From NCBI RefSeq assembly GCF_030384885.1, contig NZ_CP128613.1: a DNA stretch of 64,000 nucleotides, one strand, 5' to 3'. Origin of the DNA: Escherichia coli (GTDB lineage Bacteria; Pseudomonadota; Gammaproteobacteria; Enterobacterales; Enterobacteriaceae). Each line of letters begins with the position of its first letter. Position 1 is the stretch's first letter. The notes under the pieces were generated by a model. That model saw only the letters and a list, made by a program, of their open reading frames with translations, did not search any database and was not told where the DNA came from. Of the stretch, positions 30,112-48,695 are shown piece by piece. The position numbers and the translations under genes were made by a program.

Positions 30112-30121
30112 TCCAGCATGG

Positions 30122-30212
30122 TTTGTCGGATGCGGCGTAAACGCCTTATCCGACCTACAGATCAGGACCGTTTGTAGGCCCGATAAGACGCCACAGCGTC
30201 GCATCGGGCATC
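30122..30212. repeat. REP/BIME element (two inverted REP copies) downstream of hemL
   Basis: TGTCGGATGCGGCGTAAACGCCTTATCCGACCTACA and inverted copy TGTAGGCCCGATAAGACGCCACAGCGTCGCATCGGGCA match the REP consensus family. Confidence 0.7.
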
Positions 30213-30268
30213 CGTTGCCGCGTAAAAGCTTTATCCATCCAGGAGTTAAGGGCCGTTATATGGAAAAA

Positions 30269-32251
30269 TTAACGGCTCTGCTTTCTCAACAAATAGATAA
30301 AATACGGCGCGCCGATAAAGGTCGACAGCAGCCCCGCTGGGATCTGGAATGGAAACAGCACCATCCGCCCACACCAGTCAGCGAACACCAGCAACAATCC
30401 CCCTACCAGCGCCGAAATCACGATGTGCGGCATCGTCCGTCGAAAGCCCATCATCCGTGCGATATGCGGTGCCATCAGGCCAACAAAACTCAACGGCCCG
30501 ATGGTCATTGTCGCGGTCGCCGTCAGGCAAGCCGCCAGCAGCAGTAGCGCAATTCGCGTCGGCGTCAGCGCCATTCCCACGGCTCGTGCGGTATCACCTC
30601 CCAGCGGTAAAATGGTCAGCCAGCGGCGGCACAGCGGGGTAATCGCCAGCAAAATCACCATCACAATTCCGGTGCGCCAGACCTGCGCCTCGGTCGCGTT
30701 GTAGGTCGAACCGGAAATCCAGGTCAGAACTTGCGCCATTCGCGGGTCACCACTTGCCTGCAACATCATCAAAAGCATGGTGAACGCTGTACTTAACGCC
30801 ATCCCCGCCAGTAACATGCGGTGTGGAGAAAATCCACCGCGTCCGGCGGCGATCATAATGATCAACAGCGTCACCGCCGCGCCGAGACTGCCCGCGGGTA
30901 ACAGCCAGCCAAAGGCATTACCCGGCACCAAAAACAGCATCAATACCACACCAAACGCCGCGCCTGAACTAATCCCCAGCACTTCGGGGCTTGCCATCGG
31001 GTTTCCGGTCAGCCGCTGAATAATACAGCCCGCCACTGCCAGCATGATGCCCGCAAACAGTGCCGCCATAATTCGCGGCCAGCGCCAGGGCATTAAATCA
31101 TCGAGCAGCGCCCCGCTCGCCCACGTCCAGCCGTGCGCATCACGACCAAACGACAGCGCCACCACCACAGCCATCAACAGCAGCACGCCGCCCGCGAGGG
31201 CAAACGCCAGCACATGTTGGCGTTCAGCAGCGACACGATCGTTCACCTTCATATCCGGCGCGCTAATGCTGCGTAAACGCGGCAGCAGCCACAGTAACAG
31301 CGGCGCACCTATCAACGCCGTCACCGAACCGGTAGAAACTTCCATCCACACGCGAGTCAGCCAGAGGATGATTTGATCGGAAAGCCAGAGGATCAGCGCA
31401 CCAATCAGCGACGCCAGCAGCAGTCTTGGCAGCAGACGCCGCGCCCCCAACATTTTTGCCAGCAGTGGCGCGAACAACCCGATAAAGCCGATAATCCCCA
31501 CCGCGTTCACCAACAGAGCACTGATGACTATCGCCAGCGACAGCGCCGCCAGACGCGCGAGCGATAAGGCCAGCCCGAGATTACGCGCCACGCCATCATC
31601 AAGCCCCATCAGGGTTAATGGACGAAGTAGCAGTAACGTCAGCATCACGCCGCCCAGCAGCTGTGGCCATAAACGCTCAACGCCGCCCCAGTCGGTTTGC
31701 GTCAGCGTTCCGGTACTCCACAGGAACATGCTTTGCAGCTGGTCGTGATGGAAGATAACCAGTAGCTGATTAATTGCCCCACAATAAAGGCTCACCACCA
31801 GCCCCGCGAGGATCAGTGTTACCGGCGAAAGCCGTTTCCCCCACGCGACGCCAAAAACGATTAAGCCAACAACGCAAGCCCCCGCCAGCGCAGCAAACTG
31901 GCTCGCCATCGCACCAGGGATCGCCCAGAGTGTAGTGACAGTAATTCCCAGTTGCGCACCAGTTGCGACGCCCAACGTGGTCGGCTCCGCCAGCGGGTTA
32001 CGCAGCACTTGCTGAAATAGCACGCCCACCAGCCCCAGACCCGCGCCCACCAGCAGCGAAATCGCCAGACGCGGCAGCAAGCTGTAGTGAAAAATCATCT
32101 GCTCGATGACATCGATATCCGGCGACCAGGTGGCCTGCACCCACTGGCTACGCGGCAGCGCCTGCGAGAAGTTCATCCAGGTGAGCATCGCTGCGGCAAT
32201 CACCAGCAGCGCCAACAATAACGCCGGGAAAAGCGCAATACGTTTACTCAC
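30269..32251 (-). CDS. fhuB: Ferric hydroxamate ABC transporter permease (duplicated permease)
   Basis: Track ORF 660 aa, two homologous membrane halves; synteny fhuACDB. Confidence 0.95.
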   Translation of the reverse strand: MSKRIALFPALLLALLVIAAAMLTWMNFSQALPRSQWVQATWSPDIDVIEQMIFHYSLLPRLAISLLVGAGLGLVGVLFQQVLRNPLAEPTTLGVATGAQLGITVTTLWAIPGAMASQFAALAGACVVGLIVFGVAWGKRLSPVTLILAGLVVSLYCGAINQLLVIFHHDQLQSMFLWSTGTLTQTDWGGVERLWPQLLGGVMLTLLLLRPLTLMGLDDGVARNLGLALSLARLAALSLAIVISALLVNAVGIIGFIGLFAPLLAKMLGARRLLPRLLLASLIGALILWLSDQIILWLTRVWMEVSTGSVTALIGAPLLLWLLPRLRSISAPDMKVNDRVAAERQHVLAFALAGGVLLLMAVVVALSFGRDAHGWTWASGALLDDLMPWRWPRIMAALFAGIMLAVAGCIIQRLTGNPMASPEVLGISSGAAFGVVLMLFLVPGNAFGWLLPAGSLGAAVTLLIIMIAAGRGGFSPHRMLLAGMALSTAFTMLLMMLQASGDPRMAQVLTWISGSTYNATEAQVWRTGIVMVILLAITPLCRRWLTILPLGGDTARAVGMALTPTRIALLLLAACLTATATMTIGPLSFVGLMAPHIARMMGFRRTMPHIVISALVGGLLLVFADWCGRMVLFPFQIPAGLLSTFIGAPYFIYLLRKQSR

Positions 32252-33138
32252 GCTTTACCTCCAATGGCGTTATCCAGAATACGCACAAAATGCATTGCCG
32301 AGAGCGTCGCACCATAAAACCAGACTGCGGGGACGCGCTGAAAGCGTCCGGCACGGACAAACGGCATAGCCTGCCACAGCGGCGTCGCCATTAGGGTGTC
32401 CATATCTTTGCTGTTGTCGTGATCAAAACAGAGCACATCAACGTCTTTATACGCTGCCAGACGATCGATACTGACGGCGGTACTGCCCCAGAAGTTGGTT
32501 TCTCCCTGCCAGGCATTTGGGATGCCGTACTCATCGAGAATTTCCTGGAACAGGCTGTTCGGGCCAAAGACCAGCATATGGCGCGGATCGATAAGCGTCG
32601 TCAGTAATAATGGGCGCGCACCACGCTTCACAAAGCGGGGTTTCATGCTGCGGATAAAGTCTTCATAGTGCGCTAAATGCGTTTCTGCTGCGCTTTGCAG
32701 GTTAAGTAAATCTGCCATTTCCGTCAGTGACTTACGCGCCATCGCCAGCGGCTGTTTGCCGTCGCTGAAGTTAAATCCGCGCCCAGGCGCAATGCGTGCC
32801 AGCATTTCTGGTGAAGGGCCATACCCTGCCGACCAGACCATAAACGACGGCTTCATTTCGGTCAGCAGTTCAAGGCTAGGTTCTGTCCGCAAACCGACGT
32901 CAATCACCGATTCAGGTAATGGCGGTTCGCTGACCCACAGGCGATAGTTGATGGTATCCGCCACGCCGTAAGGTACGATGCCGAGCGCCAGCAGTAATTC
33001 CACCGGCAACCACTCCAGCGCCACAATACGATTGGGATCAATAGCCGCCGCGCGGGCGGTATTCATCTGCCATAACAACGGAGAAAGCGCCATCGCCGTT
33101 AACAGTCGACGGCGCGAAATAAGAGGTAAGCCGCTCAT
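32248..33138 (-). CDS. fhuD: Ferric hydroxamate periplasmic binding protein
   Basis: Track ORF 32248..33141 (MMSGLPLISRRRLLTAMALSPLLW...); start at second Met assumed (296 aa); overlaps fhuB start. Confidence 0.9.
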   Translation of the reverse strand: MSGLPLISRRRLLTAMALSPLLWQMNTARAAAIDPNRIVALEWLPVELLLALGIVPYGVADTINYRLWVSEPPLPESVIDVGLRTEPSLELLTEMKPSFMVWSAGYGPSPEMLARIAPGRGFNFSDGKQPLAMARKSLTEMADLLNLQSAAETHLAHYEDFIRSMKPRFVKRGARPLLLTTLIDPRHMLVFGPNSLFQEILDEYGIPNAWQGETNFWGSTAVSIDRLAAYKDVDVLCFDHDNSKDMDTLMATPLWQAMPFVRAGRFQRVPAVWFYGATLSAMHFVRILDNAIGGKA

Positions 33139-33935
33139 CAATAAACAAAACTCACAGGTGCAGCACCCGCCGGATGCGGCAAAATACCCATCGGGATGCC
33201 ATAAATCATTTCGAGGGTTTCGCCGCGCATAATTTCCGCAGGCGTTCCCTGAGCAATCATTTCACCGCCGCGCAGGGCGACCAGATAATCACAGTAACGC
33301 GCAGCCATATTGATATCGTGCAGCACGGCAATGACCGTCAGACCACGTTCCTGACTTAAACGGTGCACCAGCGCCAGCACATCAACCTGGTGGGCGATAT
33401 CCAGAGCCGAGGTCGGTTCGTCGAGCAACAGACAACGGCTATCCTGCGCCACCAGCATGGCGATCCACGCCCGCTGACGTTCACCGCCTGAGAGGCTATC
33501 GACCAGCCGATGCGCCAGCGGTTTTAAACCAACCAGCGCGATAGCTTCCTCGACCTTTTCGCGATCTGCCACGCCAAAGCGTCCCAGCGCGCCATGCCAC
33601 GGGTAACGACCAATCGCCACCAGTTCACGCACCGTCATCCCTTCAGCCGGGGGAAGTTGCTGCGGCAAATAAGCCACCTTGCGGGCAAACGCTTTGCTGC
33701 TCCAGCTTTCCAGCGGCTGGGCATCAAGAAGAATCTCCCCTTCCGACGGCGGTTGGTGACGGCCAAGCATTTTGAGCAGAGTGGATTTACCAGAACCGTT
33801 GTGACCAATCAGACCGGTCACTTTCCCGGCAGGAAAGGTTAACGACAGCGGATGCAAAAGCGTGCGCCCGGGCACACGAAAGGAGATATTACGCAGTGCA
33901 AAAGTGGTATCGGAATGATTCGTGTATTCCTGCAT
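33138..33935 (-). CDS. fhuC: Ferric hydroxamate ABC transporter ATPase
   Basis: Track ORF 33138..33977; start placed at MQEYTNHSDTTFALRNISF (265 aa); Walker A GHNGSGKST and LSGGERQR signature. Confidence 0.9.
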   Translation of the reverse strand: MQEYTNHSDTTFALRNISFRVPGRTLLHPLSLTFPAGKVTGLIGHNGSGKSTLLKMLGRHQPPSEGEILLDAQPLESWSSKAFARKVAYLPQQLPPAEGMTVRELVAIGRYPWHGALGRFGVADREKVEEAIALVGLKPLAHRLVDSLSGGERQRAWIAMLVAQDSRCLLLDEPTSALDIAHQVDVLALVHRLSQERGLTVIAVLHDINMAARYCDYLVALRGGEMIAQGTPAEIMRGETLEMIYGIPMGILPHPAGAAPVSFVY

Positions 33936-33985
33936 AACAGCCAACTTGTGAAACGGGCACGGAAATCCGTGCCCCAAAAGAGAAA

Positions 33986-36229
33986 TTAGAAACGGAAGGT
34001 TGCGGTTGCAACGACCTGACGTTCTGCGCCCCAGAAGCAGCCATAGGTGTTAAAGCAGCTGGCGACGTATTCACGATCGAACAGGTTGTTAACATGCAGC
34101 GCCACGTTGGAGCCCGCCATGCCGACTCGCGCCAGATCATAACGCACTAACGCATCCACGACCGTATAACTTCCCACTTTAAAGGAGTTAGCCGGATCAC
34201 CATAGCTGGAGCCAGTATAACGACCACCGGTGCCCAGCGTCAGACCTGAAAGCGGACCGTCAAAGAAGGTATAGTCAGCCCACAGCGAAGCCATGTGTTT
34301 TGGCAGCTGTGCAGGCGTATTGCCTTTATAGGTAGTGTCGGTGGTGTATTCCGCATCGGTGTAAGTATAAGAACCTACTACGTTAACACTCGCCGACAGC
34401 GCCGCTTTCGCTTCGATTTCTACGCCACGAGCGCGGATCTCGCCACCTTCAACCGAGAAGAAGGAACCCTCAGGGTCCGCCATCAGGTTGTTGGTTTTAG
34501 TGAGATTATACACAGCACCAGTAACCACAATTGGGCGATCTTCCGGTACATATTTCACGCCGACCTCATACTGCTTACCTTTAGACGGCGCAAAAATATT
34601 ACCATCCTTCCCAACTTGTGAAGAAGGTTCAAACGATTCGCTATAGCTGAAGTAAGGTGTTACACCATTATCAAACAGGTAGTTAACACCACCACGCCAG
34701 GTAAACTGTTTGTCATCACGTTTATCGGTCGTCCCTTCAACGCGGTTATGAGACTCTTGATCCGCCCAGTCATAACGACCGCCCAGGGTGACCAGCACTT
34801 TATCCCACTGCGCCTGATCCTGAACATAAACACCCGTTTGTTTCTGCTTATTCAAAATGCGGTAAGGACCGGAGTTTGCCGGATCTTTCGCATTGAAGTC
34901 GAAATCGGTATTCACCGGATTGTACAGATCGAGCAGCGGTACGGAGTCGTCGTAACCAAACCAGGCGTTGATGTCATTACGCATACGCATAAAGTCGACA
35001 CCGGTCAGCAGAGTGTGGTCGATATCGCCAGTGGCAAACTTGCTCTGCAACTGGGTATCAACGGAGAAGTTTTGCAGCTTCTCATCATCAACGACGTATT
35101 TACGTGCCAGGTAGTGACCTTTATCGGCTGGCGCTAAAGCGGCACACTGTTTGCTGTAAGCATTCGCCGGATCGGAGCAGACGCCGTAACCATAAACGCT
35201 GTTTTGCGAGGTTTTGTTTTCAGCAAAGCGCAGGTTCTGACGCACAGTAAAGGTGTCGTTAAATTCGTGATCGAAGCTGTAGCCCACCATCTTCTCATTA
35301 CGAGAATAGGTGTTGTTCTTCGCCCCTTCGTTAAAATCTGTCGGCAGACGCTTACCGTTCGGCAGCGGCTCAACGGTTCCCTCTTTCGGCAGCCAGCCGT
35401 AATAACCGGTTTCCGGCTCGTTCTGGAAGTAAGAAAGGAAGGTGAAATTGGTTTTATCATCCGGACGCCAGGTAAACGCTGGCGCAATGGCATAACGCTG
35501 CTCTTCCGCGCCCTTTTGCTGGGCATTGGCAGAGCGCGCCAGTCCGGTCAGACGATAAGAGTAAACGCCATCATCATCCAGCGCATCGCTAAAGTCGAAA
35601 CCGGTCTGGAACAGGCTGTCTGTGCCCGCTTTAAATTGGATTTCTTTCAGCGGTTCGGTGGTTGGGCGCTTGCTGACCATATTTAACAGGCCGCCAGGGC
35701 TACTTTTACCGTAAAGAACAGAAACAGGGCCACGCATAATTTCAGCGCGTTCCAGCATATACGGGTCAATAACTGCATCGTTATAGAAGTTGCCTTGCAA
35801 CTTCAGACCGTTGAGATAGTTATTCTGGCTTTGGCCTTCTGCTGCAAAACCACGAATAATCAAATGATCATAAGTGTTTGATGCACCACGCGTACCGACC
35901 GAAACGCCTGGCGTATAGCTAAGCGCTTCTTTTACTGACTTAGGCTGATGCAGCGCCATTTCTTCGGCGGTCACAACAGAAATTGACTGCGGCACTTTTT
36001 GAATCGGTGTATCGGTTTTGGTGCCGGTAGCGGACTGTCGCGCCGCAATAGTTGCAGCTGGCCCCCATGCGCTTTCTTGCGGCGCTGGTGCAGCGGTAAC
36101 GGTGATAGTGTCTTCTTTCGGTTCAACCGCTGCCTGTGCGTAAACAGACATGCCGCTAACCGCTGTGGCTACTACAACTGCAATTTTACGCAGTGAGTGT
36201 TTTGGCTGAGCAGTTTTGGAACGCGCCAT
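33986..36229 (-). CDS. fhuA: TonB-dependent ferrichrome outer membrane receptor FhuA
   Basis: Track ORF 33986..36355; start placed at MARSKTAQPKHSLRKIAVVVATAVSGMSVYAQA (747 aa); C-terminal ...ATATFRF beta-barrel terminus. Confidence 0.95.
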   Translation of the reverse strand: MARSKTAQPKHSLRKIAVVVATAVSGMSVYAQAAVEPKEDTITVTAAPAPQESAWGPAATIAARQSATGTKTDTPIQKVPQSISVVTAEEMALHQPKSVKEALSYTPGVSVGTRGASNTYDHLIIRGFAAEGQSQNNYLNGLKLQGNFYNDAVIDPYMLERAEIMRGPVSVLYGKSSPGGLLNMVSKRPTTEPLKEIQFKAGTDSLFQTGFDFSDALDDDGVYSYRLTGLARSANAQQKGAEEQRYAIAPAFTWRPDDKTNFTFLSYFQNEPETGYYGWLPKEGTVEPLPNGKRLPTDFNEGAKNNTYSRNEKMVGYSFDHEFNDTFTVRQNLRFAENKTSQNSVYGYGVCSDPANAYSKQCAALAPADKGHYLARKYVVDDEKLQNFSVDTQLQSKFATGDIDHTLLTGVDFMRMRNDINAWFGYDDSVPLLDLYNPVNTDFDFNAKDPANSGPYRILNKQKQTGVYVQDQAQWDKVLVTLGGRYDWADQESHNRVEGTTDKRDDKQFTWRGGVNYLFDNGVTPYFSYSESFEPSSQVGKDGNIFAPSKGKQYEVGVKYVPEDRPIVVTGAVYNLTKTNNLMADPEGSFFSVEGGEIRARGVEIEAKAALSASVNVVGSYTYTDAEYTTDTTYKGNTPAQLPKHMASLWADYTFFDGPLSGLTLGTGGRYTGSSYGDPANSFKVGSYTVVDALVRYDLARVGMAGSNVALHVNNLFDREYVASCFNTYGCFWGAERQVVATATFRF

Positions 36230-36249
36230 TGGTATATCTCTGATGTAAA

Positions 36250-36300
36250 GTGAATGATAACGTAAACGAGAATGATTATTATAAAGATGAGATAATATTC
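36250..36300 (-). promoter_or_regulatory. Fur box / fhuA promoter region
   Basis: GAATGATAACGTAAACGAGAATGATTATTAT and GATAATATTC resemble the GATAATGATAATCATTATC Fur consensus, immediately upstream of the fhuA start. Confidence 0.5.
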
Positions 36301-36371
36301 GAAACGCTACGGCGATAGCAAGTAGCATCCCCTTCAGTTCAATATAAAAGTTCAAGAATCAACCAGAGGAA

Positions 36372-36419
36372 TCAAAAAATGTTAATGATTGCACTGCAAA
36401 GTAAAACCACATTAACATT
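36372..36419 (-). terminator. Terminator-like hairpin between the accessory adhesin gene and fhuA
   Basis: AATGTTAATG ... CATTAACATT 10-bp inverted repeat (22-nt loop) followed on the minus strand by a TTTTTT run; AT-rich stem so predicted stability is modest. Confidence 0.45.
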
Positions 36420-36443
36420 TATGAAATAGGAGTCAGGGAAAGC

Positions 36444-37454
36444 TTATCGATAATACACTTCAAAGGTGGCGACAGAATTAACCAGACCACTTTTTACATT
36501 ACCCGTTTTGATATAACGCGCCTTTAATGGGATGTTAACATTTTGATTTAAAGTGGTTTTTTCGATAACAGTATACTCTGTATCAAATGCTATAACATTG
36601 TTATTACTGTCCAGGATCTGCAGGCCAACACCTTCCGCCATCCCCGATCCAGACTCAATATTGAGAATATTATTACTCGTTATCCCCGTGGATCCTGCGG
36701 AGGTGAAACGGTAATCAACCTTTACATCCTGGGAACAATTTTCAATATGAATTGAAAACCTATCATCAGAAACTACAGGTGACACATTGTTAACATCAAA
36801 ATCATCTGTTCCGATATCATCGAGTGGAACGGTAATATTCTTGTTAATAAGATCACATGTCCCTGGTATAATATTTACCGGCACAGAAATAAAACGAAGC
36901 TGTCCTATAACAAGATTGTCATACTTCCAGTCAGCAACTAATTTACTGGTGTCAATGACTCCATTACCGACAGGCCCTGTCACAACAAACTGAATAGCTG
37001 CATGTATTTTTATCGGATAAACATATCCTCTATTCACTATTGACGAGCCTTTATGCCATGGTGTTATTAAATAACCTGAGGTGAGTTGCGCATTAACGTT
37101 ATTCGCCCATGCAGCACGAAAACCAATCCCTGGAACATTCGTCTGAAACACATCATGAAGGGGGTTATCGGTACGCAAATCGCTATTTGTCAAGACGGTA
37201 AACCCTTGCCAAATGTCACCATTCGCCGAGCAGGAAACTGAAATTGAATTACTAGTAGCTTCGAGTGTGGTAATAATCGTTCCCGGCTCTGCATCGTTAT
37301 TAACATCTAACGCTGGAACTGAGAATTCTATTTTTGCCGGATTTCCCCCATTTCCCGAAATGCTGCAACCGGCGAAAGCCTCAGGAATGGCAACTAAGGC
37401 AAGAAATATTATAGTCAGTAATATTTTTACATAAGAGAAAAATCCTGGCTTCAT
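36444..37454 (-). CDS. Fimbrial tip adhesin (two-domain: N-terminal receptor-binding domain plus C-terminal pilin domain) of accessory chaperone-usher operon
   Basis: Track ORF 336 aa; signal peptide MKPGFFSYVKILLTIIFLALVAIPEAFA; C-terminal pilin-like region with Cys pair and terminal ...SVATFEVYYR beta-strand; last gene after the usher. Confidence 0.75.
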   Translation of the reverse strand: MKPGFFSYVKILLTIIFLALVAIPEAFAGCSISGNGGNPAKIEFSVPALDVNNDAEPGTIITTLEATSNSISVSCSANGDIWQGFTVLTNSDLRTDNPLHDVFQTNVPGIGFRAAWANNVNAQLTSGYLITPWHKGSSIVNRGYVYPIKIHAAIQFVVTGPVGNGVIDTSKLVADWKYDNLVIGQLRFISVPVNIIPGTCDLINKNITVPLDDIGTDDFDVNNVSPVVSDDRFSIHIENCSQDVKVDYRFTSAGSTGITSNNILNIESGSGMAEGVGLQILDSNNNVIAFDTEYTVIEKTTLNQNVNIPLKARYIKTGNVKSGLVNSVATFEVYYR

Positions 37455-37475
37455 TATTCATTCATGTCCTGTTTG

Positions 37476-39950
37476 TTATCGGCACTCTATTGTGGCCTTA
37501 TAGATACCTTTGGTATATGTTTCTGGCACAGCTATAATCCCTGTACATTGCTGATTGTTCTCTTTTCCCCACTGTACCGTAAATGACATGGCATTTTGCA
37601 CACCAGTAATATAAACCTCACCATCCTCACCGACAATTGATGTACTATCCCCTAATGTCAGCAATGATCCAAAGGGTACGTATTCTTTATCGTGGAGCAA
37701 TGTCAATAATGCTCTCATACCATTACGTGCTTTAAAATTGACACCAACGACGGCACCTTTCGAAGGAATAACATCTTGTGTTGCATCAACGATATCAAGA
37801 TTATCGTGCCCCTGAGTATTTACCGTAATGGTGTTATGTCGATAATTTGTCATATTAGGAATAATCGCGTTCCCCCAATAATCAGTATAAACTCCCTGCG
37901 CATTTTGTACTTTTACATTAGCACCATCATCAATATGCACAATCGCGAATGAATCCTGTACTGATTGCCCTAATGTTACTCCATGAGTATGCGCAACCAC
38001 CGCACCTTGTGCGCTATAATTCCATTGTCGACTATTTTTATCATAGTTATATCCCAGACCAAACTCGCCTACTGAACTACGATAACGTCCATTTATACTG
38101 GCACCATAACCCACGTTATTATCGGCATAAGTTTGTTGTAAATTATAGCTAAGGTTATTATCTTGCAGAGCAGTTCCAGCAATACCCATTTGATGAGAGG
38201 TATTACCTTTGTCTGAACGATTTGCATTATACGTCGCCCATGCCCCCGGCAACCAGCGAGACAGAGGAATATTGATTGACAATGAAAATTGCTGCTCACC
38301 AGCCATTCCAGGCATATCTGTCAGTGCGTAATTAACAGACCAGCTAATATCACTCCAGCTAGTACTATAACCCATTCCTATGCTGCGTTCGGATCCTTGC
38401 ATTCCCCAATAATCTTGTTGATAACCATTAAGATAGATCGATCCCCAACGACCTATATTTTGCGAAAGATTAATTTGCAAATGGTTACGTCTATTATTGG
38501 TCTGGCGATAACTATAAATACTCTTATCATCAGGAATATCACGTTGATCAAGTGCCTCCTGAAAAGTATAAAATTGCGATGTTGAATAACGATAGCTTGC
38601 CAGATTTAATGTCGTATCAGTATCTGGAAAATCTTTCGAATACATTGCACGCCATGACAGTCCAGTTGCATCATTGTGTTCTTCAAGTTTCGTATTTGCT
38701 GCTGTGATATCAATAGAAACCGATCCCAGGCGGCCTAAGTCAGCACCAATTCCGGTCACACCAGAACGGTACATGGAGGCTCCAAGTATGCCACCATAAA
38801 TCGTTATTCCATAAGGCAAACCATATATCGCTGTTGCAACCCCAAAAACAGGTTGCTCTGATTTATTATCACTGTCACGATATTTTCCAGCAGCAACACT
38901 ATATTTTAATGCGTTTTCTCGCTGTAGGATTGGAACCGCTGAACTAGCCTGAATAAAGCTGTGTTCTTGTCCATTTGTTTCCTTGATGGTAACGTCCAGA
39001 TCGGCCCCTGCCGTTACCTGGTTTAAGTCTTTAATTTCAAATGGCCCTGCTGATACCCATGTTTGGTAAATGACATAGCCATTCTGTTTAATCACAACTT
39101 GTGCGTCGCTATTTGCAATACCACGTACTACAGGCGCAAAGCCTTGTTCACTCTCAGGCAACATACTGGTATCAGTTTCAAGTTTTATACCTGTCATTTG
39201 CACACTATCAAAAAGTTCACCATTCGTGAAAGTTTGCCCGACTTCCATCTGGCTACGTAATATTTTGATATCACGTTGCAAACTGGTGCTAATCGAATCC
39301 CAATTGGAGCCACTATAAACAGTATTATTACGTAACCGCCATACACCTAAATTCACACCTGAGTTTAAATTCAACCAATTTGAGTTCAGGTTATCACCAT
39401 CACTATTTTGTTGAGAACCACTGACATAATAACTTAACCAGGCAGCACTATCGCCATCATTCCAGTATTTTGGTGAAATACTCCCTATGGCTCTTGAATT
39501 CTGATAAATTTGAGGAATTTGCAGCCGCAGTGTTTGACTATCTAGCTGGAAGTCATAACGTGCGCCATCAATAATCTGTGAAATATCGCCAACCTCAGCG
39601 TCATCATCCATTACTTGTAACGCAGGAATGGCACCCACGTTAAGTCCTAGCTCACCGAGATCTGCCTTTGTAAAACGAGGGATAAGTTTTTTTTTGTCTG
39701 AAGAAAGAATGAACGTAATGTTTCTCTTATCAAGATATTCTTGCCCCCACATTACAGAGGTAAGATAGACACCTGGCGTTAGATTGTTATTATTAATAAA
39801 CTCTTCCAGCACTTTTGTATTTTCAAGCGGACTATCCAACTCCAGGATACGTAAGTTAAATTCATCTCGTGCATAGCTCAATGAATACACTGTAGATAGC
39901 GCAAGCGCTACTCCAGTTAAAACAAATGTACAATGCAGTGGTAGCGGCAT
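37476..39950 (-). CDS. Fimbrial usher (outer membrane assembly platform) of accessory operon
   Basis: Track ORF 824 aa; size and composition typical of FimD/PapC-family ushers; positioned between chaperone and adhesin. Confidence 0.85.
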   Translation of the reverse strand: MPLPLHCTFVLTGVALALSTVYSLSYARDEFNLRILELDSPLENTKVLEEFINNNNLTPGVYLTSVMWGQEYLDKRNITFILSSDKKKLIPRFTKADLGELGLNVGAIPALQVMDDDAEVGDISQIIDGARYDFQLDSQTLRLQIPQIYQNSRAIGSISPKYWNDGDSAAWLSYYVSGSQQNSDGDNLNSNWLNLNSGVNLGVWRLRNNTVYSGSNWDSISTSLQRDIKILRSQMEVGQTFTNGELFDSVQMTGIKLETDTSMLPESEQGFAPVVRGIANSDAQVVIKQNGYVIYQTWVSAGPFEIKDLNQVTAGADLDVTIKETNGQEHSFIQASSAVPILQRENALKYSVAAGKYRDSDNKSEQPVFGVATAIYGLPYGITIYGGILGASMYRSGVTGIGADLGRLGSVSIDITAANTKLEEHNDATGLSWRAMYSKDFPDTDTTLNLASYRYSTSQFYTFQEALDQRDIPDDKSIYSYRQTNNRRNHLQINLSQNIGRWGSIYLNGYQQDYWGMQGSERSIGMGYSTSWSDISWSVNYALTDMPGMAGEQQFSLSINIPLSRWLPGAWATYNANRSDKGNTSHQMGIAGTALQDNNLSYNLQQTYADNNVGYGASINGRYRSSVGEFGLGYNYDKNSRQWNYSAQGAVVAHTHGVTLGQSVQDSFAIVHIDDGANVKVQNAQGVYTDYWGNAIIPNMTNYRHNTITVNTQGHDNLDIVDATQDVIPSKGAVVGVNFKARNGMRALLTLLHDKEYVPFGSLLTLGDSTSIVGEDGEVYITGVQNAMSFTVQWGKENNQQCTGIIAVPETYTKGIYKATIECR

Positions 39951-39991
39951 AAATTCCTTTTCGCCCTGGTATGAAAATACAATTAAGCGGT

Positions 39992-40708
39992 TTATAGTTT
40001 TTGTTGACGTTTCCCTGAACTTGAACCATAGTCAGTTATCACCGACCACTCAACAACACTACCTGCTCCAGCAGGAAGACTAAACCGATTCTCAGAAAAT
40101 GGACCAACCATCATCGACAATGCACCAGGTTCAGATTTCTCCTCGACAGCAGTAATGCTCTTACCTGATACTGTTAGCTCATTAAATGAAATATAAAAAG
40201 GCGTTGGATTTTTTACTATGAGCCTCCCTGATTCTTTATGAAATTTAAGTTTTTCCCATGCAGTTAAAGCGTCGCTATTACTCAAAGAATCTGGTCGCCA
40301 AAATAACTTAAGCCGTACTTTCATTGCAAATTGCAAGGTGTTTTTATCTTTTAGCTCCTCCGGCATAGCAGAAATAGATTTTATATTTGCTAAAAACAAA
40401 CTTTCTCTATCTTGAGGAAGGCTTTCTTTATTTCCTGTAAATACAACATGGAGTAGTGTTTGACGGTTTTCCTCAAGTTTATAAACGGGAGGCGTGATGA
40501 GAAAAGGGGCTTTAGAACCATCAATATTACTCACCCAACTTTGCACGAGATAACGAGCATGTGCGTCTTTATTCTTTAATGTAATTTGAACTTCATTTTG
40601 ATTTGAAGGATAGACAATGCGTGTACCACCAAGTACAACACCTGCTTGTGCTTGTATTGCAGTGAGAAGAAATGTAAATCCTAAAAAGAATCGATAAGAT
40701 ACTGACAT
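39992..40708 (-). CDS. Periplasmic fimbrial chaperone (PapD/FimC family) of accessory operon
   Basis: Track ORF 238 aa; signal peptide; GGTRIVYP... N-terminal motif typical of PapD-like chaperones. Confidence 0.85.
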   Translation of the reverse strand: MSVSYRFFLGFTFLLTAIQAQAGVVLGGTRIVYPSNQNEVQITLKNKDAHARYLVQSWVSNIDGSKAPFLITPPVYKLEENRQTLLHVVFTGNKESLPQDRESLFLANIKSISAMPEELKDKNTLQFAMKVRLKLFWRPDSLSNSDALTAWEKLKFHKESGRLIVKNPTPFYISFNELTVSGKSITAVEEKSEPGALSMMVGPFSENRFSLPAGAGSVVEWSVITDYGSSSGKRQQKL

Positions 40709-40753
40709 AAATAACCCTCCATGGTCAGATAGTCCTTCAATACACTATAAATA

Positions 40754-41320
40754 TTACCGATAGAAGACTTCAAACGTCGCAGATGAAGCATATTTCCCCG
40801 CAGTTGGCGGGTTATTACCAATCTGGATGACATTAGCAGTATAATTAAATATCGTGGGATTTACATCGCCAGCATTATCAACATCAGTGGATTCATCAGG
40901 GACAGAACCATCAAATTTTACACTACTTGTTCCGCCATTTTTATTTGTTACCGTAATACCCACATTTGTTGCACTACCCGCAGCAGTTTCGCTATTTTCA
41001 AGGCGAAGAGAACCAGTATCCGTTGTGGTTCCAGAAAATGTCAGGTTTAGTTTTGTAACCAATGGATCACACTTTAGCAACTCAATCTTAAAATCTTTTG
41101 AAGTCCCAATCGTACCATCCCCGGTATAGTCCGCAGGGTAAGTATCTGCAAAAGTCACCGTGCCTGTCGTACTACTAGAATCATTGACATTGATTTCGCA
41201 GGTATCAGCAACAATTTTACCATTGAAGTTAACAATCCCAGTATCTACAGCAAATACACTCGTACTTACTGCTGCCAGGAAAGTTCCTGACGCAAATAGA
41301 GAAAGCAATTTTTTATTCAT
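40754..41320 (-). CDS. Major fimbrial subunit (pilin) of accessory operon
   Basis: Track ORF 188 aa; signal peptide MNKKLLSLFASGTFLAAVSTSVFA; conserved Cys pair (DTCEIN ... LLKCDP); C-terminal SATFEVFYR; first gene of operon. Confidence 0.8.
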   Translation of the reverse strand: MNKKLLSLFASGTFLAAVSTSVFAVDTGIVNFNGKIVADTCEINVNDSSSTTGTVTFADTYPADYTGDGTIGTSKDFKIELLKCDPLVTKLNLTFSGTTTDTGSLRLENSETAAGSATNVGITVTNKNGGTSSVKFDGSVPDESTDVDNAGDVNPTIFNYTANVIQIGNNPPTAGKYASSATFEVFYR

Positions 41321-41653
41321 AAAAATCCCTTAATTATGAGTCAATAAAGCATGATTCCATTCCAGAGAGGCTGGGCAGGACTTGATAAATATTGATAATA
41401 TAAATATATGCAAATAATAAAATTATTTTAGATTAGAGCAAAAAACACATTACATGTCTATACGACATATAATAAAAAGGTTACAACCATCTGAAATTTA
41501 AAGATTTGTTCTTATTCTCAAAAATATAAAATCATAAATTAAAAATATAAATTCACCCCATTAGATTCATTAAATAAATACTTATTATATTTATCTATAT
41601 AACGTCATAGTAATCTATTACGCTCTCCGCATCAGCGGAGAGCTATTACGATA
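41321..41653 (-). promoter_or_regulatory. AT-rich control region upstream of accessory fimbrial operon (promoter expected here), including a perfect stem-loop next to the mrcB stop
   Basis: 333-bp strongly AT-rich non-coding stretch with many A/T tracts; 10-bp inverted repeat CGCTCTCCGC-atca-GCGGAGAGCG near 41623..41646; no promoter elements could be assigned with confidence. Confidence 0.4.
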
Positions 41654-44188
41654 TTAATTACTACCAAACATATCCTTGATCCAACCTGCTACGCCGTCAC
41701 TGTCTTTCTGCTCTTGCTGATCAGGTTGCTGTTGCGGCTGTTGCTGCGGCTGAGAAGACTGATCAAACGGATTGCCTGACGGTTGCTGCTGCATCTCACT
41801 CTGCTGGCACAGCGATTGCGGATCGCTGGTCCAGACCGGTAAGACACGCATGCCACCGCTGCAGACAAAGTTGCCGTCGTAGTCCACGCCCATATCAGCA
41901 ATGTCTTCTGGCGGAACAAGATTCAGCGGTGTTGGCGTCTGGTTAGCCAGATAACGCTGATAAATCGACATTGCCCCACTGGCACCATACAGTTTGGTCG
42001 GCTGGTTGTTATCACGGCCTACCCAGGTGATGGTCACCGTGCTGCCGTCAATGCCCGCAAACCAGGTATCCACGTTGTTGTTGGTAGTCCCGGTTTTGCC
42101 CGCCAGATGCAGGTTCGGGTATTTCGCCCCAAGCTGACGACCCGTACCGCGTTGTACCACCTGCTGCATGGTCCATAGTGTCAGATACGCCGCCTGCGCC
42201 GGAACCGCGCGTTCCGCCTGCGGGAAGCTCTGATACAGCACCTTGCCATCTTCCGCAATTACCGAACGCAGCGCAGAAAGTGGTGCACGGTTACCGCCGC
42301 TGGCGATGGTCTGGAAAGCCTGCGCCACTTCGATTGGCGTTAAGTTCAACGCCCCCAGCAGCATTGCCGGAACCGGATGCAGCTGATCTTTCGGTACGCC
42401 CAGTTTAATCCAGGTATCCGTAACCGCAGGCAGCCCCAGCGCCATCCCCAGATTTACCGTCGGCACGTTCATCGAACGAGTCAACGCATCCACCAGCATC
42501 ACTCTGCCACTTTCGCTATAACGACGATCATCGTTCTGCGGTGACCAGACCTGACCGTTCGGCTGACGCAGCGCGATTGGCGCATCGGCAATCCACGTGT
42601 TCAGGCGATAGATTCTCGGCTGGCTTAAGGCCGTCAGATAAGTCGCTGGTTTTGCAAGGGAACCAATCGAACGACGCGCCTGCATCGCACGGTTGTAACC
42701 TGCAAACTGCGGCTCAGAACCACCAACCATCGCGCGAACTTCACCGCTAAAGCGGTCGACAACCACGATTGCCGTTTCCAGATCGCTCAGCTTTCGCTGT
42801 TTCTTCAGCGCCGGAATACCCTCCACGGCGGCTTTTTCTGCCGCGTCCTGGGCCACCGAGTCAAAGGTAGTGAAGATCTTCACGCCGGAGAGATCTTTCA
42901 CTTTATCGCCCAGTTTCGCCTGTAGCTCCTGACGCACCAGTTGCATAAAGGCTGGCTGTGGAGAGATTACCCCACCACGCGGCTGAACCCCCAGCGGACG
43001 CGCGCTGAGCATTTCATACAGTTCGCCGTCGATAATCTGTTGCTGTTGCAGCAGACGCAGTACCAGATTACGTCGCTCCAGCGCCAGTTTCGGGTTACGC
43101 CACGGATTGTAGATGGACGCCCCTTTCACCATACCCACCAACAGCGCCTGCTGGTCGAGGCTCAATTCTTCTACCGGGCGACCAAAGTAATACAAGCTCG
43201 CCAGCGGGAAGCCGCGGATTTCGTTGTCGCCGCTCTGACCGAGATACACCTCGTTCATATACAGCTCAAGAATACGGTCTTTGCTGTAACGCGCGTCCAT
43301 GATCAGCGCCATGTAGGCTTCGTTCGCTTTACGCCAGTAAGAACGCTCGCTGGAGAGGAACAGGTTTTTCACCAGCTGTTGCGTCAGCGTACTCGCCCCC
43401 TGCACCGTGCGTCCGGCGGTCAGGTTTGCCAACACCGCACGTCCGATGGAGTAGAGACTGATCCCATCATGCTCGTAAAAATGACGGTCTTCTGTTGCCA
43501 GCAAAGTATCCACCAGCAGATCCGGGAAACCACTGCGCGGCACAAACAGACGTTGCTCACCGTTTGGCGAAGAGATCATGGTGATCAGACGCGGATCAAG
43601 ACGGAAGAAACCAAACTGACGGTTGTTCTCCATATTGACGATCGTCGCCAGATGATCGCCATCAAAGGTCAGACGCGCACGCACCTGTCCTTCTTTGCTG
43701 TCCGGGAAATCAAACGGACGACGGATCATCTCAATGCTGTTGGCCTGCACGGTAAATTCGCCAGGGCGCGTCATTTTCGACACCTGACGATACTGGGTCG
43801 CCTCCAGCAGCTTCACCATCTCGTTTTTGCTGATGGTCATGTCTGGCTCAAGGTTGACCATTCGGCCATAAACAGCCGCAGGCAATTGCCAAACTTTGCC
43901 ATCAATACGGCTACGAATTTTTTGATCGAGATAAACACCGTAAATGGCGATCAGCACGGCAAAAACGATAGCCAGTTTTAGCAGCAGCCATAGCCAGCCG
44001 CGTTTGCCACGAGGCTTACGCCCTTTGCCTTTGCCCTTACCTTTGCGCGGCATCGGTTCTTCATCCTCATAGTCATCATAATCGTCGTAATCATCGTCAT
44101 CTTCGTAACGACGACGGCTTACCTTTTGTTTGACCGGACGCGTCGGTTTCCCTTTGCGTCCAATTGGCTCGCGGTCATTCCCGGCCAT
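41654..44188 (-). CDS. mrcB: Penicillin-binding protein 1B (bifunctional glycosyltransferase/transpeptidase)
   Basis: Track ORF 41654..44203; start placed at [22 protein letters not shown] (844 aa); acidic [15 protein letters not shown] tract. Confidence 0.95.
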
Positions 44189-44281
44189 GCTTTTTCTCCG
44201 CAATATTCAGGCGCAAAAGCCCGATTTTCTGTTCTTCTGTAACAAGACAGAAGAAGATATCTCTCAAATTTACTTTGGTCT

Positions 44282-46711
44282 TCATGAATACTTTTTCGTC
44301 CGTCGCGTCGGTGCGGTATTTGCCGGATCATCCGGCCAGACGTGTTTGGGATAACGCCCTTTCATCTCTTTTTGCACCTCGCGATACGCTCCTTTCCAGA
44401 AGGCGCTCAAATCTCGTGTGATTTGCAGCGGCCTTTGGGCAGGAGAAAGCAACTCCAGCACCAGCGGCACGCGCCCCTGGGCGATCGTCGGATTGGTGGC
44501 CTCGCCAAACATCTCCTGCATTCTCACCGCCAGCGCGGGCGGGTTATCTTCATGGTAACGAATGGCGATCCGGCTTCCCGTCGGCACAGTGTAATGCGCA
44601 GGCAATTCACTATCCAGACGTTGCTGCATCCCCCAATCAAGTAATCCGCGTAGCGCCTGATAAATATCGAGTGATTTCAGGCCGCGTAGCGAATGTACGC
44701 CTGTCATATGCGGCAGGAGCCACGTTTCCAGCGTCGCCAACAAACTTTCATCATCAACCGCTGGCCAGTCATATTCCGGCAACCACTTTGCGGCGCATAA
44801 CAAACGCAAGCGTAGCTGTTCCGCTTCCGCCGTCCAGTTGAGCACGCTTAAACCTTTATCACGAATGCCGTTAAGCATCGCCTGATGCAACTCGTCTTCC
44901 GAGGGTTTCGCCAGCGGCTGCACTTTCACCGTCAAATGACCGATTTGCAGCCGACGCCACGCTTTCAGCGTACCTTGCGCGTCATCCCACTCCACAGTGT
45001 CAGACTGCTGTACCAACTGCGGACAGCGTTGTACTAATTCATCGATATCGACCGGTAGCGCCAGTAAAATCCGCGCATCCGGCGAGGCGCTGCCCTGCAA
45101 TAATAACGGTGCGATCAACCATTCGTGGCGGCTGAGCGCATCATCGGCATCGAGCATTGCCCCCATGCCGTTTGCCAGTTGATAGCGCCCCTCTTGCCCA
45201 CGGCGGCGAGCGATGCGATCGGCAAACGCTCCGGCAAGTAACGGTGCGATAAGCGAACTGTCTGCCTCACCGCCGCGTACGTTTAAGCGCTTTAACAGTT
45301 GCTGGCTACGTTGCTGCCAGGCAGGTTGATTGCGCGAAAACGCCACGCCCAGATCGATATTGCCCATCCGTGGTGGCTCTTCGAGAATAGCGGCAATTTT
45401 TGCAGCGGTAGCAGCTTCGTCGTCGCTCTTTGCGCTCACCAGCATTGCCGCTAAACGCGGATCGTTACCCAGCGTCGCCATTTTCTGCCCTTTCGTGCTT
45501 AGCCGTTCACCGTCCATCGCCCCCAGCATCCGCAACAGGCGTTTCGCGGCCTGTAAATTCACGGCTGGCGGTTGATCCAGCCAGCTCATCTGCGTCGGAT
45601 CGCTGCATCCCCATTGCAGTAATTCCATCAGCAAACCGGAGAGATCGCTTTGTAATATTTCTGGTTCACTTTGCGCGGAGGCGCGTTCTGCTTGTTCTTT
45701 GGCGATTAAATGTAAACAGATCCCCGGCTCCAGACGTCCGGCACGCCCGGCGCGTTGCGTCATTGATGCCTGGCTAATGCGTTGGGTAATCAGCCGCGTT
45801 AGCCCCGTGCGCGGATCAAAGCGCGCCACACGTTCCTGAGCACAATCCACCACCAGACGAATACCTTCGATGGTTAAACTGGTTTCAGCAATATTGGTTG
45901 CCAGCACCACTTTGCGCATCCCTTCTGGTGCCGGAAGGATCGCTTTTCGCTGATCGTTCAGCGACAACGCGCCATACAGCGGGCAGAGCAACACATCACT
46001 ACCGATGCGCGAAGCCAGTTGTTCCTGAACGCGCTGAATTTCTCCGACACCAGGTAAAAATAACAGTAATGAGCCGCTTTCCTGATGCAGCAATTCGGCG
46101 GTGGCAACCGCCACGGCTTCATCAAAACGCTGATGAGCGAGCAGCGGTAAATATCGGCGTTCAACCGGAAATGAGCGCCCTTCTGAGATGACGACGGGCG
46201 CTTCTGGCAGCATCTGCTGCAAGCGGTCATTGTCCAGCGTAGCCGACATAATCAGTAGTTTAAGGTCATCACGCAGACCTTGTTGCACATCGAGTAACAG
46301 CGCCAACGCCAGATCCGCCTGCAAGCTGCGCTCATGAAACTCATCGAGGATCACCAATCCAACGCCGCTCAGTTCAGGGTCACGCTGGATCATGCGCGTC
46401 AACACGCCTTCGGTAACTACTTCCAGGCGAGTATTTGCCCCGACACAGTTTTGCGCGCGCATCCGGTAGCCTACCGTATCACCTGTTTTTTCGTTAAGCA
46501 GTTCCGCCAGTCGTTGCGCAACGTTACGCGCCGCCAGGCGACGCGGCTCCAGCAGGATAATTTTTCCGTTAATGCCGGGATGCGCCAGCAGTTGCAGCGG
46601 CAGCCAGGTTGATTTCCCGGCCCCGGTCGGCGCACTTAATAACACCTGCGGTGCACCATCGAGGGCAGCAAGTAACTCAGGTAAGACGGCGGCAACGGGC
46701 AACGACGACAC
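44282..46711 (-). CDS. hrpB: ATP-dependent RNA helicase HrpB (DEAH-box); probable GTG start
   Basis: Track ORF 44282..46756; GAGKST Walker A and DEFH box; start placed at in-frame GTG giving MSSLPVAAVLPELL (809 aa as I recall). Confidence 0.88.
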   Translation of the reverse strand: MSSLPVAAVLPELLAALDGAPQVLLSAPTGAGKSTWLPLQLLAHPGINGKIILLEPRRLAARNVAQRLAELLNEKTGDTVGYRMRAQNCVGANTRLEVVTEGVLTRMIQRDPELSGVGLVILDEFHERSLQADLALALLLDVQQGLRDDLKLLIMSATLDNDRLQQMLPEAPVVISEGRSFPVERRYLPLLAHQRFDEAVAVATAELLHQESGSLLLFLPGVGEIQRVQEQLASRIGSDVLLCPLYGALSLNDQRKAILPAPEGMRKVVLATNIAETSLTIEGIRLVVDCAQERVARFDPRTGLTRLITQRISQASMTQRAGRAGRLEPGICLHLIAKEQAERASAQSEPEILQSDLSGLLMELLQWGCSDPTQMSWLDQPPAVNLQAAKRLLRMLGAMDGERLSTKGQKMATLGNDPRLAAMLVSAKSDDEAATAAKIAAILEEPPRMGNIDLGVAFSRNQPAWQQRSQQLLKRLNVRGGEADSSLIAPLLAGAFADRIARRRGQEGRYQLANGMGAMLDADDALSRHEWLIAPLLLQGSASPDARILLALPVDIDELVQRCPQLVQQSDTVEWDDAQGTLKAWRRLQIGHLTVKVQPLAKPSEDELHQAMLNGIRDKGLSVLNWTAEAEQLRLRLLCAAKWLPEYDWPAVDDESLLATLETWLLPHMTGVHSLRGLKSLDIYQALRGLLDWGMQQRLDSELPAHYTVPTGSRIAIRYHEDNPPALAVRMQEMFGEATNPTIAQGRVPLVLELLSPAQRPLQITRDLSAFWKGAYREVQKEMKGRYPKHVWPDDPANTAPTRRTKKYS

Positions 46712-46784
46712 AAAACGCTCCAGAGGGTTAACATTCTTCGCGCCACATTGTAGCATCGCGGTAATGCATAACCGAGTACCTCAC

Positions 46785-48034
<1,250 letters not shown>

Positions 48035-48211
48035 TAGAGTAAGTAACTGGTTAATTTACATTCTGGTCGCGTGCGCAAATACGCTTTTCCTCACACAGTT
48101 GTCAAGTGTTACGTTTAGATAATTGCTATCCGGAAAAGCTTCTGCTATTTATAGCGGCCTCATTTTTCCCCCGAACATGGGGATCGATAGTGCGTGTTAA
48201 GGAGAAGCAAC

Positions 48212-48667
48212 ATGCAAGAAGGGCAAAACCGTAAAACATCGTCCCTGAGTATTCTCGCCATCGCTGGGGTGGAGCCATATCAGGAGAAGCCGGGCGAAGA
48301 GTATATGAACGAAGCCCAGCTGGCGCACTTCCGTCGTATTCTGGAAGCATGGCGTAATCAACTCAGGGATGAAGTCGATCGCACCGTTACACATATGCAG
48401 GATGAAGCAGCCAACTTCCCGGATCCGGTAGACCGTGCAGCCCAGGAAGAAGAGTTCAGCCTCGAACTGCGTAACCGCGATCGCGAGCGTAAGCTGATCA
48501 AAAAGATCGAGAAAACGCTGAAAAAAGTGGAAGACGAAGATTTCGGCTACTGCGAATCTTGCGGCGTTGAAATTGGTATTCGTCGTCTGGAAGCGCGCCC
48601 GACAGCCGATCTGTGCATCGACTGCAAAACGCTGGCTGAAATTCGCGAAAAACAGATGGCTGGCTAA
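48212..48667 (+). CDS. dksA: RNA polymerase-binding transcription factor DksA
   Basis: Track ORF 48194..48667; start placed at ATG preceded by AAGGAGAAG, giving [26 protein letters not shown] (151 aa); C4 zinc finger [25 protein letters not shown]. Confidence 0.95.
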
Positions 48668-48695
48668 TTACAGCCGTTCCATCACGTTTACCACA

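Follow-up and report, generated by a model that had tools for sequence, protein, structure and literature searches.

The DNA analyzed here is a stretch of 64,000 nucleotides (nt) from Escherichia coli (assembly GCF_030384885.1, contig NZ_CP128613.1), referred to as the window. Its sequence matches the chromosome of E. coli strain 2013C-4282 (NZ_CP027579.1), which came from human stool in the USA, at 100% identity. Between mrcB and fhuA, the window contains a block of four co-directional genes whose most likely identity is the published chaperone-usher fimbrial operon ushABCD, and we use these gene names from here on. An earlier note on this DNA, made from the letters alone, had described a complete operon of major pilin, chaperone, usher, and two-domain adhesin. 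This description holds, as the four open reading frames (ORFs) are intact and full length, encode the expected domains, and have a Shine-Dalgarno-like purine-rich sequence at each start codon. The gaps between ushA, ushB, ushC, and ushD are 45, 41, and 21 nt, in that order. The mrcB stop codon and the fhuA ATG lie 5,424 nt apart, in agreement with the ~5.4 kb given by the note, whose spacer lengths are also exact: the AT-rich spacer between mrcB and ushA is 333 bp (25.8% GC), and the one between ushD and fhuA is 214 bp. The block is indeed richer in AT than its surroundings, with a GC content of 0.39 versus 0.55 in both flanks. In K-12 MG1655, mrcB and fhuA are direct neighbors separated by 219 bp with no gene between them, as the note had stated (about 0.2 kb), and the four genes are absent. 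The DNA linked to ush extends by homology from ~36387 to ~41650 (~5.26 kb), within ~15 nt of the limits proposed before (36372 to 41653). The exact sequence of this operon is already present in RefSeq, with generic annotation only. The features of the locus are listed in Table 1.

Table 1 Features in and around the ush block (positions are those of the window).
Feature	Position	Strand	Basis or details
fhuA (ferrichrome receptor)	33986-36229	-	ORF list and record annotation
Conserved fhuA upstream region, core DNA outside the ush block, sets the fhuA-side junction	36230-36386	-	
Fur-box-like site, within the fhuA upstream region	36268-36286		match 14/19
AT-rich hairpin and T-run 3' of ushD, putative weak operon terminator	36372-36420	-	folding
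ushD, two-domain tip adhesin, 336 amino acids	36444-37454	-	receptor-binding domain ~residues 29-200, pilin domain ~201-336
ushC, outer-membrane usher, 824 amino acids	37476-39950	-	Pfam usher domains
ushB, periplasmic PapD-type chaperone, 238 amino acids	39992-40708	-	Pfam PapD_N and PapD_C
ushA, major pilin, 188 amino acids	40754-41320	-	annotated fimbrial protein WP_001035602.1
ushA leader, AT-rich, presumed promoter/regulatory region	41321-41621	-	GC and sequence
mrcB terminator-like hairpin, GCUCUCCGC-UGAU-GCGGAGAGC	41622-41643	-	folding and conservation
mrcB (PBP1b)	41654-44188	-	ORF list and record annotation

Predicted components of the operon

UshA contains an N-terminal donor-strand-like segment, a Cys41/Cys84 pair, and the C-terminal motif FEVFYR. 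Its best NCBIfam matches are LpfA and FimA, both under their cutoffs (42 versus 221 bits for LpfA), and an orthologue 99.8% identical to it carries the Pfam domain PF00419. UshB contains two immunoglobulin-like domains (PapD_N, 3.3e-33; PapD_C, 6.6e-15), and the motifs TRIVY and KLFWRP are seen by eye in its translation. UshC matches the three Pfam usher domains (PapC_N, 7.5e-27; Usher, 4.8e-179; PapC_C, 2.4e-13). The best NCBIfam matches of the latter two proteins are LpfB (161 bits, cutoff 360) and LpfC (681 bits, cutoff 1271), respectively. All four proteins, including the adhesin UshD described below, have signal peptides, and their disulfide cysteines and C-terminal motifs are conserved. 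Judged by its sequence, the block contains all the parts of a classical chaperone-usher system: an usher, a PapD-like chaperone, a donor-strand pilin, and a two-domain adhesin.

Correspondence to the published ush operon

The block is very probably ushABCD, that is, the ECSF_0165 type of the gamma* usher clade. The allele of the window is rare and deeply diverged, and it most likely occupies an old locus that is patchily kept and exchanged by recombination. Wurpel et al. (2013) described ECSF_0165 as a sporadic chromosomal chaperone-usher type in strains SE15, EC958, and E2348/69, and grouped it with Lpf and Yra in the gamma* clade (PMC3559732). Stubenrauch et al. (2017) named the genes ushA (subunit), ushB (chaperone), ushC (usher), and ushD (subunit), and found that folding of UshC from enteropathogenic E. 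coli (EPEC) depends on the translocation and assembly module (TAM), as does that of homologues from Yersinia and Enterobacter (PMC5717340).

Locus tags connect this published type to the mrcB-fhuA interval. Since htrE is ECSF_0152 in SE15 and b0139 in K-12, and mrcB is b0149, mrcB of SE15 falls at ECSF_0162 and the usher at ECSF_0165; the same offset of 13 is found in E2348/69 (E2348C_0142 to 0155). In gene order and in position between mrcB and fhuA, the block equals the SE15 operon, and the operons of SE15, ST131 (EC958), and EPEC E2348/69 share with it the site, the four-gene order, and near-identical gene lengths. The mrcB terminator hairpin, the arms of the hairpin downstream of ushD, and the absence of yra from the genome are also common to the window and the SE15-type operon. 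The two differ in that their DNA identity is only 83.5% and their synonymous divergence (dS) is ~0.6-0.84, 2-10 times that of flanking core genes. They also differ in linkage, as the window allele is joined to a K-12-like fhuA and the SE15 allele to a divergent one. In a neighbor-joining tree, UshC is the sister of the SE15 usher (86.5% amino acid identity), whereas ushers from other genera are 59-71% identical to it and YraJ 38-40%.

The Yra operon of K-12 (yraHIJK) has the same minimal layout of pilin, chaperone, usher, and adhesin, belongs to the same clade, and is reported to be mutually exclusive with ush, as UshC and YraJ were never found together (PMC5717340). We checked the canonical yra site in NZ_CP027579.1 (4206362-4208042), where rsmI and agaI lie 49 bp apart with no yraHIJK, which agrees with the reported exclusion. 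Membership in Yra was rejected, as the usher is 38-40% and the adhesin 16-19% identical to the Ush proteins, and yra lies at another locus, between agaI and rsmI. Membership in Lpf (lpfABCDE) was also rejected. Lpf provides the nearest curated profiles for usher, chaperone, and pilin, and LpfD is among the full-length fold matches of UshD, but the LpfA, LpfB, and LpfC scores given above are all below the equivalog cutoffs.

The resemblance to Yeh-, Sfm-, and Elf-type operons proposed in the earlier note is loose, as the nearest profiles are of Lpf type and the operon has been assigned in print to gamma*, alongside Yra and Lpf. The suggestion that the operon might be novel does not stand either: it corresponds to a named, published type, which is the outcome that the note itself had set against novelty. 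Our literature searches found no functional work on Ush after 2017 and no named Salmonella fimbria at the mrcB-fhuA site, and the papers describing ush make no mention of mrcB-fhuA synteny (PMC3559732, PMC5717340).

A rare allele more diverged than its surroundings

We searched 5,426 complete E. coli genomes with the block by megablast. The full block is found in 572 of them, in two at 99% identity or higher (2013C-4282 and 2017-02-2CC, the latter from Viet Nam) and in 570 at ~83.5%. These 570 copies of the B2 version always adjoin mrcB, and their carriers include SE15 and O25:H4/ST131 strains. The E. coli UshD clusters that we found form two groups, this allele and the SE15/ST131 group, and the exact UshD sequence is recorded for ~490 public contigs, under the labels E. 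coli or Escherichia sp. This allele is rare among complete genomes and is not unique.

Compared with SE15, the amino acid identities are 86% for UshA, 87% for UshB, and 82% for UshD (80% in the receptor-binding domain and 87% in the pilin domain). The neighboring MrcB is 99.2% identical (94.5% at the nucleotide level), and FhuA is 90% identical (86.7%). Nei-Gojobori estimates against SE15 give a dS of 0.60-0.84 for the ush genes, 0.64 for fhuA, and 0.08-0.32 for twelve neighboring core genes, and by these estimates the two E. coli ush alleles coalesce deeper than the core around them. The ratio of nonsynonymous to synonymous divergence (dN/dS) of the ush genes is 0.10-0.16 over about 15% nucleotide divergence, and both alleles therefore appear to be under purifying selection.

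The comparison with 2017-02-2CC gives the reverse pattern, with a dS of 0.01-0.03 in the ush genes and 0.05-0.17 in the flanks. Because of this reversal, the excess of dS in the comparison with SE15 cannot simply be due to a faster synonymous rate in AT-rich genes. Two further carriers, L021 and L023, both labelled Escherichia sp., match the window at 99.9-100% identity on the fhu side but at only 97.1% in mrcB. The reversed dS and the mosaic of L021 and L023 therefore suggest that the block has been shuffled among lineages by homologous recombination, and the mosaic genealogy over positions 30000-47000 of the window implies breakpoints in or near mrcB. We considered whether L021 and L023 represent a distinct donor species and rejected this, as they are near-relatives of the window strain and do not give the origin of the allele.

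In L023, the identity is 99.9-100% from fhuA through clcA, 97.1% in mrcB, and 98.9% in hrpB. The fhuA alleles themselves are deeply diverged and assort independently of ush: the window ush is linked to a K-12-like fhuA (95% nucleotide identity), the SE15 fhuA has just 87% identity to that of either K-12 or the window (dS 0.64), and L004 carries a third fhuA allele with 74% protein identity.

Damaged copies of ush also occur. Four strains have insertions of IS1, ISEc13, or IS903B, SCPM-O-B-8794 has a truncated chaperone ORF (749-1381 of its locus), and one member of this allele's own cluster has a UshD truncated to 295 amino acids.

Junctions and spacers

On the mrcB side, similarity to K-12 ends ~4-10 nt past the mrcB stop codon, which is where the earlier note had placed the junction. 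On the fhuA side, there is one mismatch to K-12 in the 79 nt upstream of the ATG, so the fhuA promoter region is intact as the note had said, and the match becomes weaker beyond. We aligned this spacer in nine sequences covering five genera and K-12, which has no ush. The pentanucleotide TTAAC (36381-36385) and the ~60 promoter-proximal nt are invariant in all nine sequences, K-12 included, the Fur-box-like site falls in such an invariant stretch, and from TTAAC to the fhuA ATG all of the spacer belongs to the conserved core. The earlier note had also read the similar spacer lengths of 214 bp here and 219 bp in K-12 as a sign of insertion at the end of mrcB, but this similarity is coincidental, as only the fhuA-proximal ~157 nt are homologous.

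At the position of the block, K-12 has ~62 nt of unrelated sequence, which include a separate mrcB terminator hairpin. The locus therefore appears as a replacement polymorphism at an old site rather than as a clean insertion. Accordingly, the claim that an accessory block had been inserted is kept in part: the block is absent from K-12, but it has no mobility genes or repeats, other genera have the same arrangement, and K-12 shows a replacement. The four fimbrial ORFs are the only genes in the block (no integrase, transposase, or insertion sequence (IS) element), the NZ_CP027579.1 record shows no tRNA in the fhuA-mrcB interval, and a search for direct or inverted repeats bracketing the block found none; the sole long repeat seen is formed by the homologous 3' ends of ushD and ushA.

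The K-12 stretch consists of the hairpin CCGGATGGC-GAGT-TGCCATCCGG with the 8-bp direct repeat CATCTAAG on either side. TTAAC is present at both ends of this stretch, once in overlap with the mrcB stop codon and once at the conserved junction. We also considered that the K-12 spacer might be a deletion scar that kept the 3' arm and the T-run of the ushD terminator. The nine-sequence alignment rejects this idea, because TTAAC and the T-rich stretch are invariant in every taxon and are part of the fhuA upstream region. The other genera have unrelated GC-rich ushD terminators upstream of TTAAC.

The mrcB hairpin of the ush haplotype is stable, with a folding free energy (dG) of -21.5 kcal/mol (z -4.3), and 0 of 200 shuffled sequences fold as well. 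It is kept in SE15, missing from K-12, and unrelated to the K-12 mrcB terminator. The arms of the hairpin downstream of ushD lie at 36420-36411 and 36386-36377 and are followed by a T-run that ends at ~36372; the 3' arm shares bases with the TTAAC that is conserved upstream of fhuA. Both arms are conserved in SE15, where the loop has an indel. The ~80 ushA-proximal nt of the leader are conserved with SE15, and a single sigma-70-like match is found in the leader at 41551-41523. A consensus terminator scan of the block was uninformative (5 sites versus 3.6 expected).

Between the fhuA promoter and the TTAAC junction (36309-36386), the window differs from K-12 and SE15, which agree with each other, and in places (CTTGCTATCGCC...) it is like the spacers of Citrobacter, Salmonella, and Kluyvera. 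This pattern suggests that the divergent haplotype may reach slightly beyond the operon.

The same locus in other genera

The arrangement hrpB-mrcB-ushABCD-fhuA-fhuCDB-hemL is found in Citrobacter sp. On2M, Citrobacter sp. FP75, a Citrobacter-like metagenome contig, an Enterobacter metagenome-assembled genome (MAG), Enterobacter asburiae, Kluyvera ascorbata, and Salmonella enterica. A genome scan with single-protein patterns gave 5 loci and was uninformative for E. albertii, E. fergusonii, and the cryptic clades; further carriers were taken from protein-database and contig look-ups. Compared with the window, the MrcB proteins of these loci are 89-95% identical, versus 59-68% for UshC. In the six non-Escherichia loci that were aligned (the Enterobacter MAG was left out), the fhuA-side junction is at TTAAC. 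Where GC was profiled, in Citrobacter and Enterobacter loci, the operon is shifted toward AT. The loci of Citrobacter, Enterobacter, Kluyvera, and Salmonella thus share with the window the site, the TTAAC junction, the gene order, and a higher AT content than the flanks, and differ in UshC, which is 59-71% identical, and in UshD, which is 39-69% identical and falls into at least two adhesin classes.

In the neighbor-joining trees, the two E. coli UshC alleles are sisters, as are the two Enterobacter copies, and one Citrobacter-like locus clusters with E. coli. The Kluyvera UshC is 81-83% identical to two Citrobacter proteins, yet its MrcB is among the most distant, a discordance in line with recombinational exchange. 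The ushers of Citrobacter FP75 and On2M are 83% identical and their adhesins only 43%, and the FP75 adhesin groups with Enterobacter adhesins (51-53%). The difference between usher and adhesin identity indicates that the adhesin gene can be swapped alone.

The Salmonella and Citrobacter-like loci have putative IS4 remnants next to mrcB. Short ORFs on the opposite strand lie between mrcB and ushA in the S. enterica locus (1711-2636) and in that of the Citrobacter-like contig (3399-3839). Both are IS4-transposase-like, one with an Nterm_IS4 Pfam domain and the other with a ...YRHRWETELGYREIKQ... motif. The loci of E. coli, Kluyvera, and Enterobacter lack such ORFs, which therefore look like secondary insertions.

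A tentative picture that would join these observations, which we rate somewhat below even odds, is that ush is an ancient cassette fixed between mrcB and the fhuA upstream region in at least five genera, that it was lost repeatedly, that whole alleles or the adhesin gene alone were swapped through the flanks, and that two haplotypes older than the core persist in E. coli. The rarer haplotype may have been introgressed from, or may be typical of, a deep-branching Escherichia lineage. Wurpel et al. had considered both a recent acquisition of ECSF_0165 and its survival from an ancient cluster, without deciding between them (PMC3559732). The cross-genus synteny bears on this question, and our data favor an ancient, fixed locus with loss, on top of which alleles were exchanged by recombinational transfer.

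The adhesin UshD

UshD has a C-terminal Pfam Fimbrial domain (residues 194-335) that ends in the motif FEVYYR, and its N-terminal half has no significant family match among the Pfam and NCBIfam profiles. PF22003 (MrkDrd) is present in the precomputed annotation of many more distant UshD homologues. Among 55 homologues, Cys30, Cys200, and Cys240 are invariant and Cys75 is nearly so, from which disulfides Cys30/75 and Cys200/240 are predicted. A sequence search of solved structures matched only the pilin domain (FimA, FimF, FimI) and gave no match for the receptor-binding domain, and we therefore turned to structure prediction. The AlphaFold2 model, built from the alignment of the 55 homologues, has two beta-rich domains and a mean predicted local distance difference test score (pLDDT) of 91. 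Full-length fold matches found by Foldseek are CupB6, FimH, FocH, LpfD, and PapG.

In this model, the N-terminal receptor-binding domain adopts an Abp1D/MrkD-like fold. Abp1D and Abp2D bind fibrinogen and collagen IV through a distal pocket with an anterior loop, which is common to MrkD (PMC9942807). The critical arginine of this pocket is R86 in Abp and R105 in MrkD. The model suggests that UshD may bind through a distal pocket to host or environmental glycoproteins or matrix-type ligands. Abp1D and Abp2D of Acinetobacter and MrkD of Klebsiella type 3 fimbriae belong to gamma4-clade systems, a different usher lineage, and their receptor-binding domains are 13-14% identical to that of UshD, a level that backs the predicted binding architecture only and nothing firm on the ligand. 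The receptor-binding domain of the rarer allele, 20% diverged, may have a different ligand specificity.

Proposed assembly of Ush fimbriae

From what is known of the family, UshA, UshB, and UshD would be exported by the Sec pathway, and UshB would cap each subunit by donor-strand complementation. UshC would be folded into the outer membrane with the aid of TAM, by analogy with EPEC UshC. It would take the UshB-UshD adhesin complex first and then polymerize UshA beneath it by donor-strand exchange. The fiber is expected to be UshD-(UshA)n, because no adaptor subunits are encoded, and UshD is modeled to display its N-terminal receptor-binding domain at the tip. Transcription probably begins in the 333-bp leader with 26% GC. 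Silencing by H-NS under laboratory conditions is likely by analogy with other E. coli chaperone-usher operons, and H-NS control of several operons is mentioned by Stubenrauch et al. (PMC5717340). Between strains, homologous recombination in the conserved flanks, and not a mobile element, would move ush as a cassette.

Alternative explanations

The leading alternative is that the block is a genomic island acquired recently at the 3' end of mrcB in this lineage, in line with the insertion proposed in the earlier note and close to the emphasis on lateral transfer in PMC5717340, where such transfer was argued for. The low GC of the block relative to its flanks, its presence in just 572 of the complete genomes and absence from K-12, and an inter-allele dS far above the 0.08-0.32 of the flanks would all fit with this explanation, and the excess of dS does mean that at least one allele did not descend clonally with its host. 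However, the block lacks an integrase, a transposase, a tRNA, and flanking direct repeats; one site and one fhuA-side junction are used across five genera; each E. coli allele has the other as its nearest relative; and K-12 has unrelated DNA in place of an empty target site. In addition, the block is AT-rich in every host examined, and low GC is therefore a property of the operon rather than a sign of recent arrival. We consider a recent island unlikely.

Less probable still is that this is a cryptic, decaying remnant which no longer makes fimbriae. Silence under laboratory conditions is common among E. coli chaperone-usher operons, which would be in line with such a remnant, as would the lack of a convincing promoter in the consensus scan, the IS1, ISEc13, and IS903B insertions in some B2 copies, and the frameshifted or truncated chaperone or adhesin genes of other copies. 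In this strain, however, all four ORFs are full length with their Shine-Dalgarno-like sequences, the dN/dS of 0.10-0.16 points to long-term purifying selection, and signal peptides, disulfide cysteines, and C-terminal motifs are conserved.

That the block is a variant of the better-studied Lpf or Yra fimbriae is very improbable, since the top NCBIfam profiles (LpfC, LpfB, LpfA), the shared gamma* clade (Wurpel Table S2), and the yraHIJK-like four-gene layout are outweighed by Lpf scores far under the curated cutoffs, the lack of an lpfE-like fifth gene, the low identities to YraJ and its adhesin, and a chromosomal site different from that of yra.

The identification with ushABCD, and the age and workings ascribed to the locus, also have points that weigh against them. 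The link to ECSF_0165 was made here indirectly, through tag arithmetic and the description of the operon, and the neighbor-joining trees comprise 9-10 taxa and carry no support values. A horizontally acquired island would be equally expected to have a low GC content and to be patchily distributed, and the loss of ush from most E. coli including K-12 is a direction that we infer rather than one reconstructed on a species tree. As to expression, the consensus promoter scan of the block is at chance level (20 sites versus 19.1 expected in shuffles). The terminator-like hairpin that the earlier note had placed at the fhuA-proximal end exists and has its T-run, but it is AT-rich and folds no better than shuffled sequences (dG -14.1 kcal/mol, z -0.83), and could be at most a weak terminator. 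We found no data on expression, piliation, or binding beyond usher folding for any ush allele. For the adhesin, the match of UshD itself to PF22003 is below threshold (E 0.0028, 17.9 bits), and its identity to all solved receptor-binding domains is only 13-18%, so that the fold says little on the ligand.

Significance

The main value of this analysis is a clean negative: the block is, very probably, a named and catalogued fimbrial type and not a new system. Beyond the literature searched, it shows how deeply a second E. coli allele has diverged and that different genera share the mrcB-fhuA site, and it predicts an Abp1D/MrkD-like fold for the adhesin domain. This predicted fold would provide a first testable idea of the ligand (matrix or glycoprotein) for a fimbria of the pandemic ST131 clone. 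The ~20% difference between the receptor-binding domain of the second allele and the ST131/EPEC form becomes relevant if Ush is taken up as a target for typing, vaccines, or anti-adhesion treatment.

Other parts of the window

Outside the ush locus, a 20-kb core segment of the window (10000-30000) has no match at 99% or higher besides itself among the 5,426 genomes, the best being 98.3%. By these identities, the strain belongs to a rarely sequenced, deep-branching E. coli lineage. The Yad operon (yadN-yadV-htrE-yadMLKC, 51500-58500) is 63-83% identical to those of K-12, SE15, and 2017-02-2CC, with parts that cannot be aligned. The stretch from hrpB to yad (44282-58000) is 99.0% identical to one other complete genome only (2020CK-00188), the next best being ~88%. 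Going by these alignments, the core-associated Yad operon of this strain is a very distinct allele. At 18000-20000, a small presence/absence polymorphism with no bearing on ush, SE15 aligns only in part and lacks yaeI, which is annotated in K-12 and 2017-02-2CC.

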